Shown: in pieces, positions 31,350-33,979 of the stretch
How the letters are laid out: the number at the start of each line of letters is the position of its first letter
How positions within the stretch are numbered: position 1 is the stretch's first letter
From: Escherichia coli
GTDB taxonomy: Bacteria; Pseudomonadota; Gammaproteobacteria; Enterobacterales; Enterobacteriaceae
DNA: 41,445 nucleotides
Assembly: GCF_016903815.1 (NCBI RefSeq)
Contig: NZ_CP069975.1
Direction: 5' to 3' (one strand)
Program-made: the position numbers and the translations under genes
Notes under the pieces: model-generated
What the model was told of the DNA's origin: nothing
Databases searched by the model: none
Seen by the model: the letters and a program-made list of their open reading frames with translations, nothing else

Positions 31350-33769
31350 AAGAGCTGTGCTATGGATCTGTTTGCAGTGGAATTGAAGCCGCGAGTATTG
31401 CCTGGGAACCGTTGGGTATGCGTCCGGCGTGGTTTGCTGAAATCGAGCCTTTTCCATCTGCCGTTCTTGCGCACCGCTGGCCCCATGTCGCCAACCTTGG
31501 CGACATGACAAAACTTGCCAAAAAAGTCCTGGCTGGGGAAATCGAATCCCCTGATGTGCTCGTCGGGGGTACGCCTTGTCAGGCATTCAGTATCGCGGGC
31601 TTACGTGGTGGGCTTGATGATGAACGCGGCGCGCTAACTTTGAAGTATGTGGAGCTTGCAAATGCAATTGACGACAAACGGTCTGAGTCCTTCCTCAAAC
31701 CGACAGTTATCGTCTGGGAAAATGTCCCAGGAGTCCTGTCATCGGCAGATAACGCCTTCGGATGTTTCCTTGCCGGATTGGCTGGAGAAGATGCGCCATT
31801 TGAACCAGGTGATCGACCTGAATCAGGAAAAAGTAACGCGTTCTGGCGGTGGGATGGCAAAACCGGTTGCCATGCTCCAAAGTGGCCGCAGTGTGGTTGT
31901 ATTTATGGACCGCAGCGAAAGGTGGCCTGGAGAATCCTTGATGCCCAATACTTCGGAGTGGCACAACGACGCCGACGCGTGTTTGTTGTCGCAAGTGCTC
32001 GAACAGACCTCGATCCCGCAACGGTACTTTTTGAGTTCGAAGGCGTGCGCCGGGATATTGCGCCGAGCAGAGGCGAGGGGAAGGAAGTTGCCGGAAATGT
32101 TGGAAATGGCATTAAAAGCGGGAGCCATTGGGATAACCCTGTAAATCCTCACCCGACACTTAACCAGTCACACAATACTGGTGGGATTGGTGCAAGTAAC
32201 CAAGAGATTTTTGCGCAGCGAGGCAGCGGACTTGTGTATTGCATGGCGCATGGGCAAGGGGGGGCAGAAATAAAAAATGATGGGACATCACCTACTCTTA
32301 CTTGTAATCATGAAGCTCCAATTGTGTTTTCTTGCAAGAAAGCTATTGCGTTTACAAGCAAAAATTATGGGCAGGATGCGGGTGTTGAGATTTCCCCAAC
32401 TTTACGAGCTGGTAACTCTGCTAATAGCAATCAAAACGCGGGATGCCCACCAGCTGTTGCGTATTCGCTACAACATGCACAAATTGGGCGAAAAGATGAT
32501 GCTGGACCGCAGGGTAAAGGGTGGCAAAAAGAGATAAGTTTTACTCTTGATTCCCGCGCAACAGCTGACGCCGTTGCGTTATCTTTTTGGGGGCAGGAAA
32601 GTATTGAAAAAGGCGAATTAGGTGAGAATGGTTACTTACCTCATATGATGAGCGTTCGCCGTCTGACTCCTGTCGAATGTGAAAGGCTGCAAGGTTTTCC
32701 TGATGGACATACGTTGATTCCAACGGGAAAGCGTAAGAAAGTTACTTCAGATGAACTTATATACCTTCGCAATCACGATCCTGATTTAAGTGAAGAAGAG
32801 GCCGCCATGCTTGCAGCTGACGGACCTCGTTACAAAGCGATCGGCAATAGTATGGCGATACCAGTAATGCGCTGGATTGGCGAGCGGATTACCAAGGCTG
32901 CATGTCGGCAGAAAGAAGGAAGTGAAACAAAAGAGCGAAAAGTTAAACCAGCGGCAGAATTCGAACGGTCCATATTCAAATGGGCTGGTGGAAAATTTGG
33001 TGTTCTGGAACAAATCTTTCGCTATTTGCCAGAAGGGAAGCGCCTGATTGAACCTTTCGTTGGTGGCGGAGCTGTCTTCATGAATGCCGGATACCAGGAA
33101 AATCTGCTAAATGATGTGAATGCTGACCTGATTAACTTTTACAAGACTCTGCAACGCGAGGCGCATTCACTTATCACTCTGGCACATCGTTTCTTCCAGG
33201 ACTACAACACGCAGGAAGGATACCTGGCAGTACGGAATGCGTTTAACAAACAAGTCTATGATGATTTACATCGCGCAGCGGCGTTTTTGTTCCTGAACCG
33301 ACATTGTTTTAACGGATTGACGCGTTACAACCAAGCCGGTGAGTTCAATGTCGGTTATGGGAAGTATAAAACTCCGTATTTCCCATTGCAGGAGATGGAA
33401 GCCTTCCTTGGTGCGGAAGGGCGTTCTGAGTTTGTATGTGGTGATTTTGCTGCGGTGATTGAAGCTGCCGGAGAAGGAGATGTCATCTTTTGCGATCCGC
33501 CGTATGAACCGCTCCCAAATACAGAGGGATTCACGAACTATTCCGGTCATGACTTTAAGTTTGAAGAGCAAAAACGCCTGGTGTCTCTGTTGACGGATGC
33601 TCATCGCCGAGGTGCAAAGGTTCTCATTACTAACAGTGGCGCGCCAAACATCAGAGAACTTTATCAGGACAGTGGCTTCAGAGTGGAACCTCTTTTTGCC
33701 AGACGTTCTGTGTCTTGTAAGGGGGACACTCGAGGTGTTGCTCATGACGTTATAGCAATATTGCTCTAA
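31346..33769 (+). CDS. dmt: Bifunctional DNA methyltransferase Dmt: N-terminal C5-cytosine MTase fused to C-terminal Dam-like N6-adenine MTase
   Basis: 807-aa ORF with GTG start overlapping the hrdC stop (GTGA). C5-MTase motifs [18 protein letters not shown]-terminal part [13 protein letters not shown]...[11 protein letters not shown]...FCDPPYEP aligns with E. coli Dam motifs. Confidence 0.9.
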
Positions 33770-33789
33770 TAAATTTATTAGTGTAATAT
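33760..33789 (+). promoter_or_regulatory. Perfect C1 operator 17-mer overlapping a promoter (-35 TTGCTC, 17 bp, -10 TAATAT) at the dmt stop
   Basis: ATTGCTCTAATAAATTT 17/17 at 33760-33776; overlaps the dmt TAA stop; -10 TAATAT at 33784-33789. Confidence 0.6.
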
Positions 33790-33953
33790 CGCCTCAATGA
33801 ATCGTGATTTATAGAGCGATTTAGCTGTTAGCCGCGACAGGCGCGGCGGCAAGTATGGCGGGGTAGTGACTCCTTCCCCCTCATGACGCCGAGTTGCCAG
33901 GTTGACCATACGCCTAAGTGGCAACACCGAAGTGCGTTACGAGCTTCCAGTTT

Positions 33954-33979
33954 GCCCATCTTCGGGTGGGCGTTTTTTT
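33954..33979 (+). terminator. Strong rho-independent terminator about 185 nt downstream of the operator-promoter
   Basis: GCCCATC-TTCG-GGTGGGC stem-loop followed by GTTTTTTT. Confidence 0.7.

Follow-up and report, generated by a model that had tools for sequence, protein, structure and literature searches.

A probable DicF-family long-form RNA at the head of the C1-controlled ban operon of P1-like prophages

What is transcribed first from the C1-controlled promoter that sits at the end of the dmt gene in phage P1 and its relatives? The question is raised by a stretch of 41,445 nucleotides (nt) of an Escherichia coli contig (NZ_CP069975.1, assembly GCF_016903815.1; hereinafter the window), in which this promoter is followed by a strong intrinsic terminator that stands between it and the phage transfer RNA (tRNA) genes, tciABC and ban. 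The initial annotation of the site offered a choice between a repressor-controlled small RNA (sRNA) and a terminator or attenuator that gates the genes further downstream. We consider it probable, at roughly 0.62, that the ban operon of the P1 family consists, at its head, of the operator-promoter and a first transcribed unit that is a 'long-form' RNA of the DicF family. What was computed in this respect are sequence elements, homology, conservation of RNA structure and synteny. The operator-promoter itself is already known, and a dicF-like similarity is annotated in the P1 record; the new part is that the similarity is to the conserved, pseudoknotted 5' domain of long DicF, which is absent from Rfam, and that this domain is associated with terminators in a modular fashion and would occur in P1 as a primary-transcript variant.

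The case starts from a blastn search in which window positions 33832-33929 are approximately 82% identical to a chromosomal site that is present in 4445 of the 5426 complete E. coli genomes and that, in a K-12 strain, is the stretch of about 100 nt between ydfC and dicF, directly 5' of dicF in the Qin prophage. Because this site lies upstream of dicF, the homology pertains to what precedes the sRNA and not to the 53-nt DicF. The Rfam model of DicF (RF00039) has no match with a limit of E<=10 for 33780-34445 and of E<=1 for 32500-37500, so that the window goes unmatched at a threshold of 48 bits that the Qin positive control passes with 76.7 bits. A covariance model of the DicF long-form 5' domain, which was defined in this analysis and is denoted R1, matches the plus strand of the window over its full length at 33820..33936 (95.4 bits, E 5e-25). 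We refer to this conserved RNA domain as the pre-DicF domain; Rfam scans of the window and of Qin revealed no family covering it, and neither DicF nor any other Rfam family matches 33796-33979. The misc_feature 'dicF-like region' of the P1 record (68791-68892) corresponds roughly to window positions 33887-33989.

In the lambdoid copies, the fold comprises five elements, namely a closing helix P0, three hairpins (Pa, Pb and Pc) and a pseudoknot in which GUAUGG, located after Pa, pairs with CCAUAC in the loop of Pc. On the plus strand of the window, Pa (33831-36/33842-47), Pb (33860-63/33877-80), Pc (33893-99/33919-25) and the pseudoknot (33853-58/33906-11, GYAUGG/CCAURC) all pair, and the invariant GGCGCGGCGG is present. 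Could such a fold be a fortuitous feature of a few related sequences? Copies of the domain were gathered from IMG/VR, GTDB species genomes and metagenomes, and with 29 sequences aligned by MAFFT, 92.3% of the cells are paired, compared to 31-53% with slid partners; 12 pairs are changed on both sides, and none of 500 shuffles reaches the observed values. A model-guided alignment of 66 distinct sequences yields 95.2% paired cells (31-54% in the slid controls) and compensatory changes in 18 of the 32 pairs, but these counts lean to structure because this alignment was fitted to the helices of the model, and it is therefore the MAFFT figures that provide the independent test. The pseudoknot, which is outside the model, pairs in 99.7% of the cells, and two of its pairs show compensatory changes, from U-A to C-G in the P1 clade and one lambdoid copy, and from G-C to A-U in the copy L256. 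Within the P1 family, P1 differs from P7 and the window at about 20 of 161 positions here, against flanks that are about 97% identical, and where Pb (CGGGG...CCCC versus CUGGG...CCCAG) or the pseudoknot is affected, the changes are compensatory. Taken as a whole, the evidence that the RNA structure of the domain is under selection is strong.

The domain is found, in exactly one R1 copy per locus, in lambdoid prophages of Enterobacterales, with Escherichia, Citrobacter, Serratia symbiotica, Izhakiella and Trabulsiella among the hosts and mEp460, cdtI and the Stx2 phages among the phage examples; the few metagenome-assembled genomes labelled Firmicutes or Collinsella that carry it are presumably contaminant contigs. 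What follows the domain varies: it precedes at least eight interchangeable modules that consist of an sRNA plus a terminator (DicF, several DicF-like modules, longer ones and the P1 type), and an intrinsic terminator is located about 20-110 nt past the domain, in the window as elsewhere. In L019, a D6-like contig, the domain is separated from the terminator hairpin by only about 20 nt, and the stem of that hairpin carries a compensated variant. In phage vB_Apl-pPE4 (L008 1560-1760), the domain is followed by two tandem DicF-like modules, each with a terminator of its own. The domain behaves as a portable platform, with exchangeable sRNA modules placed behind it in prophages from several genera of enterobacteria.

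So what drives the transcription of this domain in the P1 family? The 1 kb around the site is 97% identical to phage P1 and 98.5% identical to P7, and positions 33790-34445 are 100% identical to a P1-like plasmid of avian E. coli; the window is a plasmid prophage of the P1/P7 type, with genes in the order rdgC/hrdC, dmt, tRNA-Asn, tRNA-Thr, terB/tciA, tRNA-Ile and dnaB/ban, and, as in P1, the site is located after dmt and before the tRNA genes, tci and ban. The 17-mer ATTGCTCTAATAAATTT, which the initial annotation took for a perfect C1 operator overlapping the -35 hexamer, is indeed found without mismatches at 33760..33776 on the plus strand, where it also overlaps the dmt stop codon (TAA at 33767-33769), at which the initial annotation had placed the promoter. 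This is the half-site Oban-a (Op72a), for which the label in the P1 record is 'monovalent C1-controlled operator Obana'. A second half-site that had gone unrecognised, Oban-b (Op72b; 33771..33787, minus strand, two mismatches, present in the P1 and P7 records), is inverted and overlaps the first one, which makes the operator divalent. On exactly these bases, the GenBank record of P1 (NC_005856) places the divalent operator Obanab, formerly Op72ab, which 'controls expression of ban', along with the sigma-70 promoter P1ban; in the P7 record, the operator governs the tRNA genes as well. P1ban occupies 33761..33789 on the plus strand, with TTGCTC as the -35 hexamer (33761-66), a 17-nt spacer, TAATAT as the -10 hexamer (33784-89) and a likely start at about 33796. 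The hexamers and the spacing of what had been called a well-spaced promoter are thus in place, whereas the consensus strength is not (3/6 plus 4/6); we accept P1ban as real because a sigma-70 promoter is annotated here in the P1 record.

Accordingly, the site is the known Op72ab/Oban together with P1ban. Like Op72ab-Pban of P1 (NC_005856), it has the same 17-mer, the overlapping inverted second site, the same hexamers, the same position with respect to the dmt stop and the same downstream gene order, and there is no substantive difference except that dmt, an open reading frame (ORF) of 807 amino acids (aa) in the window, is longer than its P1 counterpart, that is, we are dealing with the same element in a P7-like relative. 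The window contains five operator-like sites at up to three mismatches where 0.2 are expected, a number that is not reached in any of 100 shuffles. Three additional C1 sites, with one mismatch each (12965-12981, 14625-14641 and 30079-30095), presumably belong to other C1-controlled operons, and that at 30079, which precedes uhr-hrdC-dmt, is probably Odmt/Op68.

The remaining parts of the predicted transcript, all on the plus strand, can be read off in order. At its very 5' end, the minimum free energy (MFE) fold of the primary transcript contains a predicted hairpin (AAUCGUG...GCGAUUU, 33798..33823), which is identical in P1, P7 and SJ46 and hence free of covariation. The domain is followed by a P1-type linker (33926..33952) that, according to alignments and folding, consists of a predicted hairpin (33929-33947) plus CAGUUU and stands in place of the closing-helix strand and the spacer of the lambdoid copies; this linker is identical in the P1, P7 and SJ46 records and differs in the variant P1-like contigs L055 and L019. 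Next comes the terminator (33953..33979), with a stem at 33953-33972 capped by a UUCG loop and a run of seven T residues at 33973-33979, which aligns with the 5' part of DicF in the lambdoid copies and is kept, with compensated stem variants, in D6 and L019. It is an intrinsic terminator with a G+C-rich hairpin and a U-tract, for which termination activity is predicted: the hairpin is worth -12.8 kcal/mol, and the pair probability of the stem is 0.97 in the ensemble of the 184-nt RNA. The description of this element as a textbook terminator holds, that of a 7-bp GC stem is slightly generous (there are eight pairs, namely five G-C, one A-U and two G.U), and the distance of about 185 nt agrees with the 184 nt from the likely start at about 33796 to 33979. 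The assertion that no ORF intervenes is true in the sense that neither PGAP nor the P1 record calls a gene here, and inaccurate in the sense that mechanical ORFs exist, on the minus strand at 33828-34163 (111 aa) and on the plus strand at 33883-34026 (47 aa). The 111-aa frame was rejected as coding: in P1 and SJ46, it is split by variation in the length of a T-run (6 to 8). Finally, the terminator is upstream of the tRNA cluster, although not just upstream, given that tRNA-Asn starts at 34445, 465 nt further on.

How does this compare with the lambdoid relatives? Qin is reported to produce 190-nt and 53-nt DicF species, of which the former is seen on Northern blots (Ragunathan et al. 2023, following Faubladier 1990); RNase III is required for the 5' end of the 190-nt species and RNase E makes the 53-nt form, and the 190-nt species accumulates upon RNase E inactivation, with no internal promoter (Ragunathan et al. 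2023). The distance from the start of the domain to the end of the DicF T-run in Qin (L003, 2489 to 2678) is 190 nt, and from the match in lengths, the long DicF species appears to be the domain plus DicF. The long DicF of the Qin dicBF operon and the P1 RNA share their layout, with a 5' domain of about 115 nt, a spacer and an intrinsic terminator beyond which distal genes need read-through, and the domains are homologous (about 82% identity; 95 bits for P1 and 139 bits for Qin with the covariance model), the total lengths being 184 and 190 nt. The differences are at both ends. The 5' end in Qin is reported to be generated when RNase III cuts a polycistronic RNA, at a distance of about 0.8 kb from the promoter, whereas the P1 promoter is about 25 nt upstream of the domain, such that in P1 the RNA would be transcribed as such, with its start directly controlled by the repressor. 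At the 3' side, neither the 53-nt body of DicF nor the closing helix of the lambdoid copies is present in P1, which has a linker and a terminator stem of its own. The P1 terminator region CAGUUUGCCCAUCUUCGGGUGGGCG aligns with the DicF spacer and 5' segment CUGUUAUCAAUUUUCUGGUGACG, the part of DicF itself being UUUUCUGGUGACG, and the region is termed 'dicF-like' in the P1 record; the rest of DicF, including its GGCGG/CCGCC terminator hairpin and internal loop, is missing in P1. A possible pairing of CCGUGCGCUUC with GAGCGCACGCGG as a flanking RNase III duplex in Qin was considered and set aside, as it could not be tied to the mapped cleavage sites.

The scenario that we favor can then be outlined as follows. 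C1 together with Bof is known in the P1 literature to repress Op72ab/Pban, and in a lysogen, C1 (with Bof) on both overlapping sites would block the promoter. Upon induction or infection, polymerase would start near 33796 and produce the 5' hairpin, the four-helix pseudoknotted domain of about 115 nt, the short linker and the strong terminator. Most transcripts would end there, giving a structured RNA of about 184 nt that would be the counterpart of the 190-nt DicF of Qin, and a minority would read through into the downstream non-coding block, tRNA-Asn and tRNA-Thr, tciABC, tRNA-Ile and ban. The terminator would thus both end the sRNA and set the downstream dose, as in the dicBF operon. Some read-through must occur, since the operator is annotated for ban and the tRNA genes and there is no other plus-strand promoter-like site between 33980 and ban. 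As to the domain, our preferred guess is that it serves as a structural cap at the 5' end or as a scaffold for processing, which keeps the long form stable and governs how the 3' module is released. In P1, the 5' seed region of DicF would have been turned into the terminator stem and the DicF body is gone, for which reason a DicF-like action on ftsZ is not expected of the P1 RNA. In a duplexfold comparison of pairing with the ftsZ start, a crude procedure that does not discriminate since even the DicF control is inconspicuous at 0.10, shuffles did at least as well at a frequency of 0.88 for the module and 0.58 for the linker alone. Any trans-acting function of the P1 RNA is conjectural; within the 41-kb window, the longest antisense run is 11 nt, inside the shuffle range of 9-13. 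All told, the repressor-controlled sRNA of the initial annotation receives indirect support, from the 95-bit match to the 5' domain of long DicF, from selection on structure and from the C1-annotated promoter. Unnoticed in that annotation were the identity of the site with the known Op72ab/Pban, the 'dicF-like region' of the P1 record and the presence of a conserved structured domain in what is not simply an unstructured leader.

Several observations weigh against this scenario. D6 has no domain and still keeps the P1-type terminator hairpin and everything downstream, the hairpin being preceded by another hairpin-plus-linker in place of the domain, which means that the domain is dispensable for D6. 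The outer closing helix is not conserved in P1-type copies: P0 (GUUGUGG/CCACAAC) is missing from the window, the rows of the P1 type make up the unpaired cells of helix 1, and in place of P0 there are the small hairpin 33929-33947 and a weaker predicted AGCUG/CAGUU pairing, so that the fold or the function of the P1 domain may differ from that of the lambdoid ones. P1ban is a weak match to the consensus (7/12) and falls under the threshold of a simple promoter scan, and the start, the stop and the read-through fraction of the P1 transcript are all inferred from sequence. For the linker, no target was found in ftsZ or in the 41-kb window. Lastly, the Qin study reports no read-through species that extends beyond ydfABC-dicF (Ragunathan et al. 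2023), and for this reason, the leakiness of such terminators is undemonstrated in Qin too.

The alternative that fares best under the same evidence, even if we regard it as rather unlikely, is that the domain is a cis regulator of the next terminator, a factor-independent or a factor- or ligand-dependent antiterminator akin to put RNA or a riboswitch, which gates tRNA-tci-ban and for which the small RNA is a by-product. The terminator is always located about 20-110 nt past the domain even as the intervening sequence is swapped among at least eight types (down to about 20 nt in L019), the genes past the terminator, dicB in Qin and ban in P1, have to be served by the upstream promoter, and a compact, closed four-helix pseudoknot is typical of RNAs that bind ligands or polymerase, all of which would suit such a regulator. 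A classical attenuator or riboswitch is nevertheless not what the folds suggest. Neither equilibrium nor nascent-chain folding yields a competitor of the terminator, whose stem forms with a probability of 0.97 and whose 5' arm pairs with upstream sequence at 3% or less; a weak GGCAAG/UUUGCC pairing is confined to chains that still lack the 3' arm of the terminator. The alternative antiterminator folds that the initial annotation proposed to look for are thus not borne out by structure prediction, and of the gating idea, the leaky terminator is plausible whereas the attenuator with an antiterminator fold is not. Pairing of GGCGG in the domain with CCGCC in the terminator is a recurrent alternative in the lambdoid copies and is seen in the MFE fold of Qin, but there is no covariation between the two: in L110, the terminator arms are GGUGG/CCACC and the domain still has GGCGG. 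The put RNA of HK022 is a structured RNA of the phage early transcript as well, located upstream of terminators that have to be passed. It consists of about 70 nt in two stem-loops, is present as putL and putR, and binds the zinc-binding domain of beta' (PMC9378689), whereas the P1 element is a four-helix pseudoknot of about 115 nt in a single copy. Identity with put was rejected, as R1 has no match in the immunity region of HK022 (24000-32000) and occurs once per element, with no left/right pair. It speaks against a mere by-product, too, that the 190-nt form accumulates as a stable RNA in the Qin work. An effect of the RNA on termination that involves no alternative fold is conceivable all the same, and this version of the idea stays alive because of the tight association of domain and terminator whatever lies between them.

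Less probable still, in our view, is the possibility that the DicF-like RNA is a decaying relic of a dicBF-type cassette that a P1 ancestor acquired from a lambdoid source, with only the operator-promoter still of consequence, a terminator that is weak in vivo and a functionless RNA. The loss of the DicF body, the unconserved outer helix of the P1-type copies, the lack of the domain in D6 and the failure to find a target in ftsZ or the window would all be expected of a relic. Decay is hard to square, however, with the intact Pa, Pb, Pc and pseudoknot of the window (95 bits), with the compensated substitutions that distinguish the P1 and P7 lineages, with a linker that shows no difference between the P1, P7 and SJ46 records next to a Pb that does vary, and with the thermodynamic strength of the terminator. 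A little less credible again is the idea that the hairpin 33953-33972 is a 5' boundary or processing structure of a downstream RNA that resembles transfer-messenger RNA (tmRNA) and that the DicF-like domain is a recombinational passenger with no role in P1: D6 has the hairpin and the downstream block without the domain, the domain abuts the same hairpin in L019, and the block past the hairpin is about 99% conserved even beside diverged neighbouring sequence, but Klebsiella homologues of the block carry a promoter and not a hairpin at that place, the compensatory changes among members of the P1 family point to selection on the domain there, and the hairpin region, being alignable with the 5' part of DicF, descends from a DicF cassette.

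The block just mentioned deserves attention in its own right. Between 33980 and 34160, a tag frame of 11 codons that runs from GCA to TAA (34041-34073) encodes ANDDLMMVAA* in a resume-codon context, as in a tmRNA; this block is about 99% conserved in P1, P7, SJ46 and D6, and the tag variants of the P1 family have GTA, GCA or GCT at codon 8 and one GAT to GAC change. The Rfam matches past the terminator are below threshold (24 bits for the permuted model, with a gathering score of 47, and 14 bits for the beta-proteobacterial tmRNA) and rest on UAAAUGCAAACGAUGAUCUGAUGAUGGUAGCGGCCUAA. ARAGORN at its default setting makes no tmRNA call in the window and does so only at -ps80; the tRNA-like domain of that call was rejected, its 5' strand being the covariation-supported 3' strand of Pc, which is missing in D6. 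In the block, there is no tRNA-like domain with an acceptor bearing G3.U70, a T-arm, a 3' CCA and a score above threshold, and the only T-arm-like pieces of the window are in long hairpins past the tRNA genes. A homologue in Klebsiella phage-plasmids (L144 1500-1840, L145 1470-1830) has the tag ANDDVVLMAA*, with the same frame and length, a promoter-like sequence of its own, a hairpin past the stop with a different but complementary stem and, at a distance of about 240 nt, a perfect T-arm that continues into UCACUCU-C-CCA. Both of these parts are matched in the Klebsiella copies by Rfam tmRNA models at sub-threshold scores (34 bits, E 3e-4; E 8e-4 for the T-arm). Of nine Klebsiella variants, two have a 5' acceptor strand that matches (GGAGUGA) and none has G3.U70. 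The segment is absent from a 2014 census of ssrA genes in phages, whose entries are confined to mycobacteriophages, Bacillus phage G and DS6A. The downstream block is very probably derived from tmRNA, to judge by these sequence features. A broader and quite tentative notion, to which we would give rather poor odds, is that the Pban leader is a repressor-controlled array of non-coding RNAs, made up of a structured DicF-family RNA, a tmRNA-derived RNA with an intact tag template that is maintained by selection and shared with D6 and the Klebsiella phage-plasmids, long processing hairpins and tRNAs, with the domain and the terminator setting polymerase entry. On this notion, and provided that the tag template is in use, phage-plasmids of the P1 type would be reprogramming or hijacking the trans-translation of the host in the course of lytic growth.

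Other RNA elements of the same leader may be noted. Three long hairpins (34160-34243, 34600-34687 and 35298-35376) share a 5' arm, (C/U)AACAGGUAAG(G/A)G; the first two flank tRNA-Asn and tRNA-Thr, the second and the third enclose T-arm-like motifs (GGGUUCGAAUCCC, and GGGUUCAUAUCCC followed by CAGGUCCACCA), and hairpin A of the three has a single compensatory change, which is seen in D6 and SJ46. The three hairpins may serve as processing sites for RNase III or RNase P, or may be degenerate tRNA-like elements. The non-coding block of about 150 nt before tRNA-Asn (34296-34444) is about 99% conserved in D6 and SJ46 and is preceded by some 60 nt (34245-34300) that are strongly diverged, which suggests a second constrained RNA element. 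Sub-threshold matches to the Rfam family STnc100 (39 and 34 bits, gathering score 47) are located at 35373-35492, upstream of tciA, and in Qin at L003 2671-2880, upstream of dicB; with such matches at both places, the P1 ban leader and the dicBF operon share two RNA modules, between which P1 has an insert of about 1.4 kb (the tmRNA-like block, tRNAs and hairpins). Another long hairpin, perfect over about 20 bp and readable on either strand (35008-35128), falls inside the minus-strand upl/plp annotated in P1, two coding sequences that may not be real because, in the identical plasmid, PGAP leaves the interval from tRNA-Thr to terB without a gene. In the IncY P1-like E. coli plasmid CP122779 (L146 1-1160), a gene for a TnpB-family RNA-guided endonuclease immediately precedes a truncated copy of the post-terminator block (query positions 41-410, 83% identity).

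What are the implications for the phages and their hosts? For sRNA biology, long DicF gains a defined, conserved and pseudoknotted 5' domain that has no Rfam entry, and the model, the alignment and compensatory mutants offer a handle on the question why cells keep a 190-nt form beside the 53-nt DicF. P1 provides a natural experiment in this respect, with the same domain as the presumed primary transcript of a repressible promoter. For P1 itself, the first elements of the operon controlled by C1 and Bof that includes ban would be a regulatory RNA with a defined structure and, after it, a strong terminator, and expression of the phage tRNAs and of a DnaB-like helicase would then hinge on passage through this terminator, a step on which we found no study.

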